Virus record (IMG/VR): IMGVR_UViG_2657244931_000007
Origin: a virus
Taxonomy: Duplodnaviria > Heunggongvirae > Uroviricota > Caudoviricetes
DNA length: 9,212 nt
Reading direction: 5' to 3' (one strand)
Part shown: in pieces, positions 1,353-9,204 of the stretch
Numbering within the stretch: the first letter of the stretch is position 1
Layout: every line of letters starts with the position of its first letter
Notes under the pieces: generated by a model
The model's input: only the letters and a program-made list of their open reading frames with translations
What the model was told of the DNA's origin: nothing
The model's database searches: none
Made by a program: the position numbers and the translations under genes

Positions 1353-1510
1353 AGAGTGCTATGTGACAAATGGATGTAACGAGAGGTTACATTCAGCTAT
1401 CTGAAATGCTCTCTGTAAGAAAGTAGGTAGTAACGGTAGGTCACTGTGAGCTACCCCCACAGAATTCTGTTACCCCTATCAAGTCTGATACCCGATAAGT
1501 ATAAATAACA

Positions 1511-1611
1511 CCTAGGAAATGATTTCCGATCTATTTAGGAAGTAACCTAGGAAGTGGTTTCCTACCTACTTAGGAAATGAGTTCCTACCTACCTAGGAAA
1601 TGAGTTCCACC
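1511..1611. repeat. Iteron cluster: four copies of a 13-bp palindromic core GGAA(A/G)TG(A/G)(T/G)TTCC with shared CCTA...TACC flanks
   Basis: Cores at 1515..1527 (perfect palindrome GGAAATGATTTCC), 1550..1562, 1573..1585, 1596..1608; the last three centres are 23 bp apart. Confidence 0.7.
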
Positions 1612-1672
1612 AATACTATAATTAAATACTATAATTAAATAATATAAATAATATTCTTTATACTATATATAT
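1612..1672. repeat. Very AT-rich tract with tandem ATACTATAATTAA x2 (1613..1625, 1626..1638); candidate DNA-unwinding element next to the iterons
   Basis: Almost pure A/T directly 3' of the iteron cluster. Confidence 0.5.
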
Positions 1673-1680
1673 GATCTTTT

Positions 1681-1860
1681 GCCTTCCGGCGTTAGCTTCA
1701 CTCTCTGGCAAGCAGCCTTACTCCGCTACCTTTCGGGCTTCGTGGCTGGCCCGTTCCGCTCACACCGAAAGCAAAGCGTTACTTTCTTCGTGTAACTATC
1801 GTTGGCGGTAACGCCCACGAAGAAATACTATTGCGCTGTGCGCAGAAGAGTAATCACCTA
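1681..1860. other. GC-rich island with nested stem-loops; candidate structured non-coding RNA or structured DNA site (strand unknown)
   Basis: Clearly GC-richer than the flanks. 9-bp stem TTCTTCGTG (1784..1792) / CACGAAGAA (1816..1824) encloses GGCG-GTAA-CGCC (1804..1815; GNRA-type tetraloop); second stem CTTTCGG (1730..1736) / CCGAAAG (1765..1771). Confidence 0.35.
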
Positions 1861-2294: not shown

Positions 2295-2610
2295 AATGTG
2301 TTTTATGAAGGATTCAGAGGTGTTTCATAACAGGAGTGTATAGAGGATATTTTAATTAATTAAAAATAAGGGGTCTAAATGCTTCTCTAACAACATTAAG
2401 CAGGGTAGGGAATGGAAACGCATTGCCTACACATATAAGCTCACTACAGAGCTTTACAGAGCGTTTTATAAAGTAACTCTCTATCTTATATCTACCATTA
2501 CCTTTTCATATACCTAACAAATACAAAATAAGCCCCTTAAATAAGCCTCTGGCGAGCTAAACAGCCATTACATAAGGGAATGTGTTGCTTTTATCAAAAC
2601 TTCGTTAGAA

Positions 2611-2631
2611 CGCGTTTTAGAGCGTTTTAGA
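2611..2631. repeat. Tandem GCGTTTTAGA x2, with a related AGAGCGTTTTA copy at 2458..2468
   Basis: 2612..2621 and 2622..2631 are identical 10-mers. Confidence 0.5.
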
Positions 2632-2691
2632 CAATAAGGAGGAATAGCACTACACAGAAGAGCACGAATTGCTAAGAAAAAATGTAAGTGC

Positions 2692-2753
2692 ATGAAAAAG
2701 ATCAGATTTTTTTATGAAAAGGTATTGACAAATGTTTCTTTATATGTAATAAT
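2692..2753 (+). promoter_or_regulatory. Early-operon promoter: -35 TTGACA (2725..2730), 17-bp spacer, extended -10 TGtAATAAT (2745..2753); direct repeats ATGAAAA(A/G)G (2692..2700, 2714..2722) upstream and AGGTATT (2720..2726, 2754..2760) bracketing the core
   Basis: Perfect -35 hexamer, 17-bp spacing, TG-extended -10, about 110 bp upstream of the first plus-strand gene. Confidence 0.55.
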
Positions 2754-3051: not shown

Positions 3052-3075
3052 TAGACAAGAGAAGGAGAAAACCAA

Positions 3076-3264
3076 ATGAATATTAATTTTGATTCTGCAA
3101 CTTATAACGCGTTGTTAAATCGCGCAAAGGCAGAAGGGAAATCAATTCCAAAACTTGTTAATGAACTACTAATTACAGTCCTTACAAAGGAGGAACTAAA
3201 TGATCAAAAATATCAAAACAATTGCCGAAGCGAAAGCCAAATGTCTAAATCAGAAAGATGGTAA
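3076..3264 (+). CDS. Ribbon-helix-helix (Arc/Mnt/CopG-like) DNA-binding protein, 62 aa; putative transcriptional repressor
   Basis: MNINFDSATYNALLNRAKAEGKSIPKLVNELLITVL fits a beta-strand / helix / helix RHH pattern; RBS AAGGAG at 3062..3067; 3' end overlaps the next gene by 65 nt. Confidence 0.65.
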   Translation: MNINFDSATYNALLNRAKAEGKSIPKLVNELLITVLTKEELNDQKYQNNCRSESQMSKSERW

Positions 3265-3931
3265 ACAAAAATATGTAGTTGTTGAGCAATGGTTGAAGAT
3301 GTTTAAAAAATGGTATTCACCATCTGGTAATGAATACACCGCTACACTGCCAGCCGTTGAAATCTATAGCTATATAGCTGGATTCAATGAACAAGGGCAA
3401 GAATGTTACGCTACTCAAAAAACATTAGCTAATATTGGAATGGTTAGTGATCGCCAGGTTCGCAATATTATAAATATGTTTGTTGATATGGGAGTTCTTT
3501 CTGTAGAGGCACGGGACGGTCAAACATCACTCTATAAAGCATTACCATTTACAGATGCACATATTACTCCCCCAGGAGAATCATCACTCTCTGATCTTTC
3601 TGAGGCAGAAGAAGCACAGGAACAACCTAAAGGCCATAAACAGCCTTCTTTTGATGTTCTTGATGATTGGGATGCGCCTTTGCCGTGGGAGACGGAAGAA
3701 ACACCTGTTTCATCAAGTGAAAAGGTAGCTAATGATAATGAGGAGGATGTGTTAGAGAATTTTGCCTCTCTTATCATCCAGGAGAAACACACACGAACAG
3801 GAGGAGCATCATTTATTGAGTTTGCAAATTCACTAGCTTGTAGATACGGGCTAAAACGACCAAATGGTATTGAGGCATATTTTTCTAAGCATTACCCAAA
3901 TGTATATGACGACTTTGATATTCCATTTTAA
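3200..3931 (+). CDS. Winged-helix-like DNA-binding protein with acidic C-terminal region, 243 aa; candidate replication initiator or regulator
   Basis: Strong RBS AAGGAGG (3187..3193), 6-nt spacing; segment YATQKTLANIGMVSDRQVRNIINMFVDMGVLSVEA resembles a wHTH; C-terminal half is acidic and low-complexity (SEAEEAQEQ ... DDWDAPLPWETEE). Confidence 0.75.
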   Translation: MIKNIKTIAEAKAKCLNQKDGKQKYVVVEQWLKMFKKWYSPSGNEYTATLPAVEIYSYIAGFNEQGQECYATQKTLANIGMVSDRQVRNIINMFVDMGVLSVEARDGQTSLYKALPFTDAHITPPGESSLSDLSEAEEAQEQPKGHKQPSFDVLDDWDAPLPWETEETPVSSSEKVANDNEEDVLENFASLIIQEKHTRTGGASFIEFANSLACRYGLKRPNGIEAYFSKHYPNVYDDFDIPF

Positions 3932-6041: not shown

Positions 6042-7070
6042 ATGATTCTAGGTAATGATTACGTTGATTTAGCTCCTCTGTTCTCTGCGCATAGCACTAG
6101 AAATTATCTGCTTTCTACTCTTGATTTTACGGATTCTGTAGGGGTTACATCTCATAAAGTAGCTGTTTCCCAGCTTGTCGAAAGCAACGAATCTCTCTTT
6201 AACAAAGAGACAAGCCGTTTTAGTTCTGAACACAATGTTACTAAGCGAGAACAAGGTAAAGAATGGCTGATCGAAATCCCTTACTTCCTGCGTGAGGATG
6301 TTATCCGTCCCTCTGATGTTCAAGGCAAACGTAAGTCTGGCACTGATTTTCAGGAAACACTCACTGATATTTATGCGGAATATATCGCTAAACACCACGT
6401 AGCGTATCAGCGCACTAAAGAGAGCGTGCTGGCGGCTTCTTTGTTCTCTGGCAAAACTTACACGCCTAAAACTGATGATGTGTTAATTGAGTGGGGCAAG
6501 CTGTTTAACGTATCAGCTATGAAAGCCACTGTGAACGCCTCCAGCACTGACACCACGAAGATTTTTAAAGAATTTGATCAGATTGCTACTGACATTATCG
6601 AAAAAGCACAAAGCCAGGCGGCTGCTGTAGAGCGTATTGTTGTTTTCTGTAAGCCGGAAGCCTTCTCTGCAATTCGATTCTCTGCTGGTATGGCAAACGC
6701 ATTCCAGTACGTAAGCCCACTGGAAGAAGGGAACGTTGTGTATCAGCGTCGTGACCTGCTACCAGGAGTGACAGCGTTCACTATTCCAGGAACTAACATT
6801 GATGTTGTTAAACTGGTAGATCCGCTACACCTGGCACATATGACCGCAGACGCTGTAGCTGTGCCTAAATTCGCTAAAGGCTCTAACGTATATCAGAACA
6901 TCTACGGGGCTGCTTCCAGCACCTTTGAACTGATCAATGCCGATCCTACTGAGGTGTACAGCTATAGCTATGAATCTTCTCGTGGTGATGCTGTGAACGT
7001 TGTTACAGAGAATAGCCAGATGGTTGTAAACCACGGTGTAGGCTTCTCCGTTCAAATCACTGTTAAATAA
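6042..7070 (+). CDS. Putative phage major capsid protein, 342 aa (possibly lambda gpE-like; tentative)
   Basis: Size, beta-rich composition, and a strong intrinsic terminator directly downstream, as often seen after major capsid genes. Short segments (LAASLFSGKTYTPK, DLLPGVTAFTIPG) loosely recall lambda gpE from memory; not verified. Confidence 0.45.
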   Translation: MILGNDYVDLAPLFSAHSTRNYLLSTLDFTDSVGVTSHKVAVSQLVESNESLFNKETSRFSSEHNVTKREQGKEWLIEIPYFLREDVIRPSDVQGKRKSGTDFQETLTDIYAEYIAKHHVAYQRTKESVLAASLFSGKTYTPKTDDVLIEWGKLFNVSAMKATVNASSTDTTKIFKEFDQIATDIIEKAQSQAAAVERIVVFCKPEAFSAIRFSAGMANAFQYVSPLEEGNVVYQRRDLLPGVTAFTIPGTNIDVVKLVDPLHLAHMTADAVAVPKFAKGSNVYQNIYGAASSTFELINADPTEVYSYSYESSRGDAVNVVTENSQMVVNHGVGFSVQITVK

Positions 7071-7374: not shown

Positions 7375-9204
7375 ATGTTAGAAATTAACACTTCTAAAAT
7401 TAAGAACACAGTAACATTTAGTGTAGATAAAGACAGCTTGAAAAAAGCGAAAGACTCTATTACAGGCTTAAAGGAATTCGCAGAAAACATCAAGCCAGCT
7501 AAATTAAGATTTGATAATGTCACTAAAGGCTATAAGAAAGCACAAAGTGAAGTAGATAAGATTGCTCAACAGAAAGCCAAAACAGAAAAGCAGAATCAAA
7601 GAGCACAAGCTGCCGCAGCAAGAGCACAGGCAAGGCAACAGGCACAAATAGCAGCACGTAAAGAGAAAGCAGAATTAAAACTGTTAGACGTTGGATCAAG
7701 CATTAGTGCAATGCACCGTCTCTCTGTAGCGGAACAATACAAAGCTATTGCACAGGCTAGAGAGATAGCAAAACAATACGAACAAGGCGCTATCAGCTTG
7801 GCGCGTATGAATAGCCAGATGAAACGCCTACAACAACAACAACGTAAGATTAATGGCAACCGAAAAGCACAATTTGCCCCCGTTAAAGGAGGATCAGGGA
7901 ATTCCGCCACTATGGGCGCTCTGTTATTTGGAGGCGCTACGGCTGCTGCTGGCGTGATGGCTGTTAGTAAAACCTCTGAATTTATGGCTAATAGCTTTGC
8001 GAATGCTGAAACACAAGGAGAATTAATCCAACGTGCAAGGCTTGGCGGTGTAGACGTTAACCAGATGTACAACATTACAGAATGGGCGTATAAAAACGGC
8101 GTTGATTCTATGATGGGTGATCAAGGGGCTAGGAAATACCTGGATCAGATGAAAGATGTTAGGGAACGTGCCGCAAAATCCTACAGTGAAGCTGAATTGG
8201 TGAAAGACAAGAAAGGAAAATCTGAATGGAAAGGCGGTGATAACGCTATTAATGAACTTCTAAACATCGGTGTTATTAACAAAAGCGACCTTAAAAAATT
8301 TGCTGATAATCCGGCTGGATTAATTTCTAAGGCTGTTAATGGAATGATGAAAAAAGGGTTTTCAGACTCCCAAATTGGACAACGTTTAGAAGACCTGGGC
8401 GATGATTTGATGCTTACATCAAAATATTGGCAACGTTCCGTTAAAGATGTACAAGAAAGTATTAATCAGCAAAAAGCCTCTGGAAAATGGCTAACAGAAA
8501 CACAGCAAGACTCTATTGTTAAATTCAGAGAACTAAACAGACAGCTTTCACAGCTTTCTGATGCAAGACAAGTAGCATTCGTAGACGGGTTTATGAAATC
8601 TCTTGATCCAAAAGTAACGGAAGAGTTTATGAAAAACCTTTCTAATCTCACTCCGTATTTTACGAAGCTTGGCGAAGCGTCTGGAAGTCTTTTTGAAGCT
8701 ATTATGAAGGTTGTAAACTGGTTTAATCGTAATGATGATAAGACAGATGCTATTCAGAAAAATATGGGAGATGCACCGCCATTAAGCAATGAAGGGATGA
8801 AACAGAATCTTTCTAATCTCGTTCCTGATCAATATAAAGGCGCTGGCACTGCAACAACTACACCTGATAATAGTCATTCTCTCTTTAACACGATTAAGGG
8901 ATGGCTTTTCGATGATAATGCTTCTTCTGTGTCAGATGTAAAAATGTCAGTCAGCGAAGCACCGATAACCAATCTCAAACAGGGTGCTTTAAATAATCTT
9001 GCAATGACAACTCCGGCTTATAATTTATCTCCTGTGTTTAATCTGAATCCTACATTTGAAGTGGTAACAGAAGTGCCTCTTACTATTAATTCTGACACGT
9101 CAAGATTAAGCGATTATGTGGATTTTACAGCGAGAGCAAGTCGGGATAGCTTCTTGAAATCATTAACATTAACCAGCTTATCAGGACAATCTAACGGCGG
9201 GTAA
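7375..9204 (+). CDS. Large virion-associated-type protein, 609 aa: coiled-coil Ala/Gln-rich N-terminus and a Gly/Ala-rich hydrophobic segment; tape-measure-like or internal/ejection protein (function uncertain)
   Basis: RBS AAGGGGA at 7361..7367; AQAAAARAQARQQAQIAARKEKAELK coiled-coil region; hydrophobic TMGALLFGGATAAAGVMAVS at about residues 180..200; ORF reaches the end of the window. Confidence 0.8.
   Translation: MLEINTSKIKNTVTFSVDKDSLKKAKDSITGLKEFAENIKPAKLRFDNVTKGYKKAQSEVDKIAQQKAKTEKQNQRAQAAAARAQARQQAQIAARKEKAELKLLDVGSSISAMHRLSVAEQYKAIAQAREIAKQYEQGAISLARMNSQMKRLQQQQRKINGNRKAQFAPVKGGSGNSATMGALLFGGATAAAGVMAVSKTSEFMANSFANAETQGELIQRARLGGVDVNQMYNITEWAYKNGVDSMMGDQGARKYLDQMKDVRERAAKSYSEAELVKDKKGKSEWKGGDNAINELLNIGVINKSDLKKFADNPAGLISKAVNGMMKKGFSDSQIGQRLEDLGDDLMLTSKYWQRSVKDVQESINQQKASGKWLTETQQDSIVKFRELNRQLSQLSDARQVAFVDGFMKSLDPKVTEEFMKNLSNLTPYFTKLGEASGSLFEAIMKVVNWFNRNDDKTDAIQKNMGDAPPLSNEGMKQNLSNLVPDQYKGAGTATTTPDNSHSLFNTIKGWLFDDNASSVSDVKMSVSEAPITNLKQGALNNLAMTTPAYNLSPVFNLNPTFEVVTEVPLTINSDTSRLSDYVDFTARASRDSFLKSLTLTSLSGQSNGG

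Follow-up and report, generated by a model that had tools for sequence, protein, structure and literature searches.

The stretch of DNA analyzed here (IMG/VR record IMGVR_UViG_2657244931_000007; 9,212 nucleotides in full, hereafter the window) carries a row of phased palindromic repeats that leads straight into an AT-rich tract, which raises the question of whether this locus is a replication origin and, if so, of what kind and for what element. A preliminary description of the window had proposed an iteron-type origin with an adjoining unwinding element, as in theta-type plasmids and some phages. Our comparison with related loci suggests, with a probability that we put at roughly 0.78, that positions 1510-1672, probably together with a conserved core extending to ~1763, are the vegetative origin of a 12.4-kb integrated satellite, with lambda- or PLE-style iterons and a matched initiator.

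The repeats themselves are as first described, with four 13-bp palindromic cores, three of them at exact 23-bp spacing. Copy 1 (GGAAATGATTTCC, 1515-1527) is a perfect palindrome, and copies 2 (GGAAGTGGTTTCC, 1550-1562), 3, and 4 (both GGAAATGAGTTCC, 1573-1585 and 1596-1608) show 1-2 deviations from dyad symmetry. The start-to-start distances are 35, 23, and 23 bp, and the 35-bp gap contains a truncated copy (GGAAGTAACC, 1538-1547) placed exactly 23 bp after copy 1. Tandem Repeats Finder reports the 23-bp period (2.8 copies, 87% matches, 1545-1608) and a further 35-bp period at 1510-1576, and a second, separate repeat search returned the same 23-bp family. Allowing up to 3 mismatches on both strands, 16 core matches were found, eight of which are the four clustered sites, against 3.2 +/- 1.95 in shuffled sequences, none of 200 shuffles having 16. 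The AT tract reported to follow the iterons directly, with its tandem 13-bp repeat, is equally real: positions 1613-1672 are 93% A+T, the highest A+T content of any 60-nt segment among the 9,212 bases, and their nearest-neighbor free energy of -51.7 kcal/mol, ~4 sd from the mean (-75.5, sd 5.8), makes them the least stable in the window. The 13-bp repeat (AATACTATAATTA) occupies 1612-1651 (3.1 copies, 92% matches), and a GATC stands at the right edge of the tract (1673-1676). Among related loci, this duplication occurs in 7 of 12 that encode a type-A protein (see below) and in none of the other types; the AT tract itself is conserved. The locus hence holds two features of the iteron class, namely at least three direct repeats of ~17-24 bp at regular, near-helical-phase spacing (four full copies and one truncated, at 23 bp) and an easily melted AT-rich tract that adjoins the repeats in the same place across initiator types.

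The preliminary description had also pointed to DnaA boxes, IHF sites, and GC skew as informative for an origin. Neither DnaA boxes nor IHF consensus sites were found near 1510-1672, the nearest DnaA-box-like match (up to 1 mismatch) being at 2964, and the cumulative GC-skew minimum falls at ~2200 and not at 1600, which counts against the origin, although the signal is weak for so small an element. A search for sigma-70-like promoters returned none in 1500-1700 on either strand. Scanning the whole window against Rfam (E <= 1) yielded two sub-threshold chance matches, both outside this region, and a tRNA/tmRNA scan found none. A blastn search of 1400-1900 against phages gave no match, indicating that the origin region is not common to known phages. 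The features of the region are collected in Table 1.

Table 1. Features of the window around the proposed origin, and repeat cassettes found in the same slot of related loci
Feature	Position	Strand	Description
Serine recombinase	244-783	minus	First in the island gene order; 730 bp from the repeats
Short mechanical ORFs	901-1023, 1671-1811, 2568-2693		40-46 aa
Site e	1376-1390	.	Single copy, GTAACGAGAGGTTAC; palindromic core arrayed in relatives with another initiator allele
Site c	1439-1449	.	Single copy, GGTCACTGTGA; palindromic core arrayed in relatives with another initiator allele
Site d	1459-1470	.	Single copy, ACAGAATTCTGT; palindromic core arrayed in relatives with another initiator allele
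Site b	1472-1482	.	Single copy, ACCCCTATCAA; palindromic core arrayed in relatives with another initiator allele
Type a iteron array	1510-1608	.	Four 13-bp near-palindromic cores and one truncated copy; 23-bp unit ACCTAGGAAATGAGTTCCTACCT
AT-rich tract, proposed DNA-unwinding element	1612-1672	.	93% A+T; least stable 60-mer; kept in all Rep types
58-nt core	1706-1763	.	TGGCAAGCAGCCTTACTCCGCTACCTTTCGGGCTTCGTGGCTGGCCCGTTCCGCTCAC; nearly invariant; directly right of the AT tract; conserved in relatives with diverged flanks
Predicted sigma-70-like promoter	2725-2753	+	Best of the region; TTGACA-17-AATAAT with TG, 11/12; consensus match only
Isolated a-type site	3137-3149	.	GGAAATCAATTCC; precedes the ATG of the 243-aa gene by 51 nt; fifth full site
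243-aa initiator candidate	3200-3931	+	Winged helix ~aa 30-125, acidic linker 128-179, helical C-domain
Cassette a			Core GGAAATGAnTTCC
Cassette b			Core ACCCCTATCAA
Cassette c			Core GGTCAyWGTGA
Cassette d			Core ACAGAATTCTGT
Cassette e			Core GTAACGAnAnGTTAC
Cassette f			Core TGTGACGnnnCGTCACA
Cassette h			Core AGGTGTCAATTTGGCACCT
Further cassette type			Seen with type-I protein

The element that this locus would serve is an integrated phage satellite and not a plasmid. The window aligns at 97.7% identity with part of the chromosome of E. coli Res13-Lact-PEA14-20, and similar DNA was found in 760 of 5,426 complete E. coli genomes, 265 of which cover at least 80% of it. It is part of a 12.4-kb island at the tRNA-Thr gene thrW, which is flanked by a 20-bp direct repeat of the tRNA 3' end and carries a tyrosine integrase at its far end. 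Behind the serine recombinase gene, ~2 kb (784-2860) contain no ORF of at least 40 aa apart from the three short mechanical ones; then come small ORFs, the HTH_36 protein gene (3200-3931), several proteins with no assigned function, a Phage_cap_E major capsid protein, a 609-aa tape-measure homolog, and, outside the window, a baseplate protein. The tape-measure homolog is 30-36% identical to those of 145-150-kb E. coli myoviruses (Justusliebigvirus, Phapecoctavirus, and rV5-like phages). Genes for a helicase, primase, or polymerase are missing from the island, and it is this lack, together with the phage-like structural genes and the tape-measure kinship, that gives it the look of a phage satellite. 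No NTPase or primase domain and no ParA, ParB, ParR-type, or terminase family was detected in the window proteins, those downstream of the 243-aa gene had no family matches, and an NCBIfam search gave none either. Searching the genome contigs with the capsid protein returned one locus only.

Relatives of the locus were gathered from E. coli genomes, IMG/VR, and metagenomes by means of a common 20-nt anchor directly right of the AT tract. All 77 loci share one layout: direct repeats 21-24 bp long, each built on a palindromic core, lead into an AT tract, beyond which lies a conserved GC-rich core. The slot for the repeats contains cassettes of at least eight unrelated sequence types. The protein encoded ~1.5 kb to the right of the slot occurs in nine N-terminal types, A to I, which share a hinge, an acidic linker, and a C-terminal domain, i.e. 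a variable DNA-binding N-terminus is joined to a conserved C-terminus across alleles. Over 45 non-redundant loci, the b cassette accompanies the B allele in 10 of 10 cases as against 8 of the 35 others (Fisher p = 1.4e-5), c accompanies C in 9 of 10 (p = 1e-4), d accompanies D in 4 of 6 as against 0 of 39 (p = 1e-4), and f accompanies F in all four as against none of 41 (p = 7e-6), these p-values being indicative only because the loci are related and the tests overstate their independence. Every locus with an A allele has a or a-like sites, and in composite loci, which line up b, a, and c cassettes, it is the cassette closest to the final AT tract and core that fits the resident protein. Exceptions are a C protein with a b cassette (locus L038), a D protein with two c sites (L024), and a D protein with a single d site (L009). 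The isolated site in front of the 243-aa gene follows the same rule, occurring in 13 of 13 type-A loci as against none of 44 others, and we propose that it serves autoregulation or looping. In the window, the single copies of sites e, c, d, and b all lie directly left of the a array.

By these comparisons, linkage alone does not account for the pairing of cassette and allele, because the DNA in between does not covary. The intervening 1,150 nt are 96.0% identical in same-type pairs of loci and 95.7% in different-type pairs, identity between types reaches 99.7%, and the nearest neighbor of a locus is often of another type. One type-B and one type-C locus have identical small ORFs upstream of the 243-aa gene; as these ORFs do not covary with the cassette, they were rejected as repeat-binding partners. 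The serine recombinase does not covary either (98.1% versus 98.2% identity), and identical recombinase proteins occur across types. This bears on one alternative, namely that the repeats are res- or hix-like sites at which this recombinase resolves or inverts a noncoding segment. Serine recombinases do bind inverted-repeat sites, the gene is close by, and a 12-nt motif present at 838-849 and 894-905 recurs in inverted orientation at 3071-3082. However, the recombinase gene is absent or disrupted in many loci with full arrays, and 13-bp palindromes are shorter than the dimer sites generally known for resolvases and invertases. The inverted 12-mer is restricted to type-A loci and is probably due to chance, ~2.5 such occurrences being expected in 9.2 kb by our estimate; an invertible segment between 838/894 and 3071 was rejected accordingly, and we consider recombination sites at the array very improbable indeed. 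What does vary in step with the repeats is the N-terminus of the 243-aa protein, which is indirect evidence that its DNA-binding specificity matches them.

The 243-aa protein, which had been put forward as the only obvious candidate initiator, gains support in this role from its covariation with the cassettes, the site in front of its own gene, its PHROG matches, and its fusions in phages. It matches Pfam HTH_36. For eight of the nine allele types, the functionally annotated PHROG matches at E <= 1e-3 are all to replication initiation proteins, O-like or DnaD-like helicase loader families, and none of these matches is to a regulator family. In the AlphaFold model, aa 30-125 form a winged helix predicted with confidence, 128-179 form a disordered acidic linker, and the C-domain is small and helical. 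No match was obtained in a sequence search of the PDB, and there is no Rep_3 family match for this protein. Within 3200-3931, the only tandem repeat found is a 9-bp, 2.2-copy one at the start codon (3198-3218). The protein ends in DDFDIPF (nt 3908-3928); an (I/L)PF tail is found in 54 of 57 proteins and DFD(I/L)PF in 48 of 57, and some allele types have an internal DFDDLPF in addition. E. coli SSB ends in an essential tip, DDDIPF, which contacts DnaG and many other replication proteins (PMC5872125). A mimic of this tip on an origin-binding protein could plausibly recruit parts of the replisome, the likeness being one of a six-residue motif, which counts against the origin.

The main alternative is that the palindromes are an operator array, with the winged-helix protein acting as a repressor or activator of a promoter in the AT tract whose transcript would run through the conserved core from 1673. 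Palindromes suit dimeric regulators, TATAAT-like hexamers lie within the AT tract, and the block to its right is highly conserved, whereas the promoter scan of 1500-1700 was negative on both strands and 1673-1850 folds weakly (z = -1.95 and -2.29 for the two strands, only marginally better than shuffles) and has no Rfam match; a noncoding RNA at 1673-1850 was rejected on these grounds, and the conserved core varies too little to offer covariation support for one. A coding function does not explain the conservation either, because single-base indels in relatives exclude coding for 1706-1763 and led us to reject the ORF at 1671-1811 as a gene; the core may instead be the right-hand part of the origin. 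A site in front of the own gene is typical of autoregulated repressors, several specificities are known from phage immunity systems too, and a fold search with the 243-aa protein is dominated by MarR/ArsR regulators. Database entries name it "transcriptional regulator" or "hypothetical" (565 matches), which counts against an initiator, though it does not discriminate. On the other side, the annotated PHROG matches are to initiators, four to six equally phased sites beside a 93% AT tract and 1.5 kb from the gene are the layout of an origin, and an acidic linker with an SSB-tip-like tail has no obvious role in a repressor. Taken together, we hold a purely regulatory array to be improbable; moreover, Rep proteins often act as repressors too, and the operator and origin functions are compatible.

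Further evidence for the origin comes from phages. Justusliebigvirus phages share two short stretches with the window at 97-99% identity, and the match in muut lies in gene muut_154 (332 aa, annotated as "hypothetical"), which encodes a type-B winged helix, a type-A winged helix with 91% amino acid identity to the window protein, and a C-terminal endonuclease domain (phrog_681, E 2e-18, and Pfam MUG113). We take MUG113 to fall within the GIY-YIG clan, alongside T5orf172. In BI-EHEC, an unannotated 321-aa ORF joins a type-D and a type-A winged helix to the same nuclease, and an inny protein joins a type-A winged helix to it, i.e. one or two satellite winged-helix domains are fused to a nuclease in Justusliebigvirus and Phapecoctavirus phages. 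In PaulScherrer (Bas60), this genomic position is occupied instead by a copy of the 62-aa ORF of the satellite (3076-3264). From these similarities, phi92-like phages are likely to be helpers or enemies of the island. A parallel is found in the Vibrio phage ICP1, whose Odn protein combines the DNA-binding domain of PLE RepA with a T5orf172 nuclease and cuts the PLE origin at the iterons, and which PLEs evade by swapping RepA-N/ori modules (PMC8263062). The parallel supports the view that the winged-helix domains are sequence-specific targeting modules and that their targets are a cis element indispensable to the satellite.

A nuclease directed against any essential cis site would look alike, which counts against the origin, and in particular a phage nuclease cutting a pac site would likewise stop the satellite. 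The repeats could then be a pac-like or centromere-like site for which the winged-helix protein is the specificity factor, an alternative already named in the preliminary description, repeated binding sites being typical of pac/cosB and of parC/parS. We regard this as highly unlikely. The window proteins include no terminase and no ParA, ParB, or ParR-type family, and the 243-aa protein matches initiator families. A packaging signal for a shared helper terminase should be conserved and not come in at least eight specificities on ~96% identical backbones, and an integrated island needs no partition system.

If 1510-1672 is the origin, the following sequence of events can be envisaged. After induction, the 243-aa protein would be produced from an operon starting near 2725, which the predicted promoter at this position likely drives. 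Its N-terminal winged helix would bind the four phased cores, probably as dimers, and the resulting nucleoprotein array, comparable with the lambda O-some, would strain and open the adjoining 60-bp tract. The conserved C-terminal part with its SSB-tip-like tail would then recruit replisome parts such as helicase and primase from the host or a helper phage, and through the extra site at 3137-3149, the protein would regulate its own gene. Specificity would be modular, islands differing in the winged-helix allele and the matching cassette in the same slot, and helper-type phages would attack this pairing through nucleases with captured winged-helix copies. One further motif of the region, the T4-late-like TATAAATA, is found five times, each time on the + strand, and two of these copies flank or lie inside the element; it is not conserved in relatives and was dropped as a functional candidate.

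With regard to known systems, the proposal of an iteron-type origin with an unwinding element is supported by comparison, the closest systems being lambda O/ori-lambda and PLE RepA/ori and not the classical Rep_3 origins of theta plasmids. Theta-plasmid iterons are asymmetric and monomer-bound, with a separate inverted repeat for dimers, and DnaA boxes and IHF sites are usual. The plasmids of this group (Rep_3/RepA; pPS10, R6K, P1, and F) share with the island direct repeats of about two helical turns beside an AT-rich unwinding element, a winged-helix initiator, and a site at the rep gene for autoregulation; the island, on the other hand, is integrated, its sites are palindromic, DnaA boxes and IHF sites are missing nearby, and its initiator candidate has no match to Rep_3. 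SaPIs and other PICIs, as the present satellite appears to do, encode initiators matched by allele to origins that have iterons and an AT-rich region. The SaPI Rep, however, works as a helicase and has a primase beside it, whereas no NTPase, helicase, or primase domain is present in the 243-aa protein.

The resemblance to lambda is closer. In the lambda origin, O dimers bind four iterons, each a 19-bp inverted repeat, and unwinding requires the AT-rich region alongside (PMC7466680). As in lambda and the lambdoid and Stx phages, four imperfect inverted-repeat iterons lie beside an AT-rich region here, where dimer binding would be by analogy, the origin has no DnaA boxes, and the initiator candidate would combine an N-terminal DNA-binding part with a C-terminal recruitment part. 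O-like families are among its PHROG matches, although the sequence likeness, at E 1e-4 to 1e-10 against the PHROG profiles, is marginal. Unlike in lambda, where the origin lies inside gene O, the proposed origin is in noncoding DNA 1.5 kb upstream of the initiator gene, a distance that counts against it; there is no P-like helicase loader gene, and the C-terminus bears the SSB-tip-like motif in place of a P-binding domain.

The PLE/ICP1 pair (PMC8263062) is the closest precedent, and systems that pair an iteron origin with a cognate initiator are already known. Both elements are satellites of lytic myoviruses with semi-palindromic iterons in a large noncoding region; in both, the N-terminal DNA-binding domain of the initiator covaries with the origin, the C-terminus is conserved, and replicon modules are exchanged between elements; and in both, phages carry a chimera of this DNA-binding domain and a GIY-YIG-superfamily nuclease, known in our case from sequences alone. 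The two systems differ in their initiators (HTH_36/O-like here, RepA_N in PLE), in their repeats (four 13-bp cores at 23 bp as against three ~30-bp repeats), and in the number of specificities (at least nine as against two). Furthermore, the host is E. coli and not Vibrio cholerae, the nuclease matches MUG113 and not T5orf172, and, unlike Odn, it can carry two captured domains in tandem (B+A or D+A).

A more far-reaching reading, which we offer tentatively and would not expect to hold in all its parts, takes 1370-1672 as a specificity-switching origin. The slot would store single sites for at least four other alleles (e, c, d, and b) beside the active a array; on acquisition of a new N-terminal winged helix by recombination, the matching single site would be re-amplified into an array, and the satellite would thereby escape phage nucleases, some of them two-headed. 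Such an origin would be fired with no dedicated loader, the DDFDIPF mimic drawing in SSB-interacting replisome proteins of host or phage. This would amount to a second arms race over origin-directed nucleases, one that arose independently, is far more diversified, and is genetically tractable in E. coli with BASEL-type phages.

No published description of the island or of the phage nucleases was found in the searchable literature, the coverage of which is incomplete. Four aspects are new compared with the systems above: the protein family is HTH_36, with a tail like the SSB tip and without a loader; one slot takes so many interchangeable specificities; sites for other specificities are lined up as single copies at 1376-1482; and there are phage nucleases with two captured domains. 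The tail of the initiator candidate raises a testable mechanism of recruitment. If the reading as an origin is confirmed, the name "transcriptional regulator" would be corrected for several hundred database proteins, and about nine natural orthogonal pairs of winged helix and DNA site would become available for work on the evolution of specificity and for synthetic biology. About one in seven complete E. coli genomes carries the island, and, if confirmed, it would be, as far as we could establish, the first satellite with a mapped origin among those of large lytic E. coli myoviruses (phi92/rV5-like). Origin-directed nucleases would then be a general phage countermeasure that evolved independently of the ICP1/PLE system of Vibrio.

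Lytic coliphages of the Stephanstirmvirinae carry ORFs that join one or two winged-helix domains of the satellite initiator to a GIY-YIG-type (MUG113/phrog_681) endonuclease domain, and in the phages muut, BI-EHEC, and inny these chimeras are either annotated as hypothetical or absent from the annotation. Judged from their sequences, they look like analogues of ICP1 Odn, a phage nuclease that carries the DNA-binding domain of PLE RepA and cuts the PLE origin (PMC8263062). The slot that holds the chimeric nuclease gene in muut is occupied in PaulScherrer/Bas60 by bas60_0101, which shares 99% DNA identity with the 62-aa ORF of the satellite, and in L009, a type-D satellite, the small ORF is identical to muut_153. 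This phage slot appears to be a hotspot that captures satellite DNA. The 62-aa ORF itself has only two weak PHROG family matches and, by eye, looks ribbon-helix-helix-like.

In a type-A subgroup of the compared loci (L007, L049, L074, L075, and L077), the winged helix is nearly identical to that of type A, the C-terminal domain is different, and the slot left of the AT tract contains three diverged sites (GGAAGTGGTTGCC, GGAAGTGGTCTCC, and GGTAATGAGTTCC) spaced by 21 and 24 bp. By analogy with the PLE1 iteron mutant, of which they are a possible counterpart, these sites could represent escape from the type-A phage nucleases. Immediately left of the active array, the window also has the palindromic e, c, d, and b cores lined up in one copy each, these being the units that form arrays with other initiator alleles in relatives; the single sites (1376-1482) could be relics of earlier specificities or a reservoir for switching. 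Three loci are exceptions to the pairing of protein and cassette, possibly through recent recombination or because their origins are defective: L038 pairs a C-type protein with a b cassette, and of the two loci with a D-type protein, L024 has two c sites and L009 only one d site.

Directly right of the AT tract lies a 58-nt core, the first 20 nt of which served as the anchor for retrieving the loci, that is nearly invariant in all of them, even where its flanks have strongly diverged. Because its sole variation consists of single-base indels, the core is noncoding; it has no Rfam match and no phage match, and it might belong to the origin, act as a signal for the primosome or for packaging, or be an RNA. 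Two hairpins follow the core, and at this position distant relatives have other sequences that also appear to form hairpins. Farther right, a 19-mer (ACCAATCATACTGATTGCT) occurs as a perfect tandem duplicate with the palindrome CAATCA-TAC-TGATTG inside, and relatives have a single copy with a variable center (CAATC-N3-5-GATTG); the palindrome is probably bound by another, conserved protein.

The 243-aa candidate initiator ends in DDFDIPF, which is close to the C-terminal tip of SSB, given as DDDIPF in PMC5872125, and 54 of 57 homologues end in (I/L)PF. Its linker contains a second acidic aromatic motif, DWDAPLPW (aa 156-163), the equivalent in other types being DFDDLPF.

Features of the satellite and related phages (window coordinates unless a compared locus, L, is named)
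Feature	Coordinates	Description
muut_154, phage muut	L078:2130-3128	winged helices B and A, endonuclease domain
Chimeric ORF, phage BI-EHEC	L080:1114-2079	unannotated; winged helices D and A, endonuclease domain
Chimeric protein, phage inny		winged helix A alone, endonuclease domain
62-aa ORF	3076-3264	
bas60_0101	L079:1515-1700	
e core	1376-1390	single copy
c core	1439-1449	single copy
d core	1459-1470	single copy
b core	1472-1482	single copy
58-nt core	1706-1763	
Strong hairpin	1784-1824	arms TTCTTCGTG...CACGAAGAA, inner GGCG-GTAA-CGCC
Small hairpin	1833-1843	GCGC-TGT-GCGC
Tandem 19-mer	1861-1898	
DDFDIPF end	3908-3928	
Phased repeats	85-147	
TTGCGAGAGGTGCTTAACGCGATTTTCAGCGCCCCCCGAT motif	167-207; L081:1507-1546	second copy in phage Antha
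TATTCATTTGGT motif	838-849; 894-905; 3071-3082	third copy inverted
Capsid protein	6042-7070	
609-aa protein	7375-9204	
thrW att repeats	L001:11011-11030; L001:23445-23464	20 bp each

Downstream of the recombinase gene are about six helically phased copies of a 10-bp unit (ATAAATAC/CTAAATAC), a stretch that contains TATAAATA twice and is likely to be intrinsically bent DNA. Upstream, the 12-nt motif TATTCATTTGGT occurs twice, with an inverted copy at the start codon of the 62-aa ORF; a segment invertible between these copies was considered, but the arrangement is probably due to chance because the inverted copy is restricted to type-A loci.

The island spans 12.4 kb between its thrW att repeats; a relative adjoins a tRNA-Leu gene (L005), and another copy, with an IS3 insertion in its noncoding region, resides on a conjugative IncF plasmid (L082). 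The motif TTGCGAGAGGTGCTTAACGCGATTTTCAGCGCCCCCCGAT, of about 40 nt, recurs identically in many E. coli myoviruses of 145-150 kb, namely Antha and, besides it, more than 40 rV5-like phages, where tiny ORFs surround it. A tRNA was not detected at the motif, which may be a common regulatory or cis-acting signal connecting the satellite to these phages. The phi92/rV5-like myoviruses have tape measure proteins homologous to the 609-aa protein (30-36% identity), and the capsid protein is unrelated to the capsids of these phages, its closest phage relatives being Pseudomonas KIL-like (~24% identity). This combination of a shared tape measure and an unrelated capsid suggests that the satellite builds its own capsid and uses or modifies the tails of its helper.
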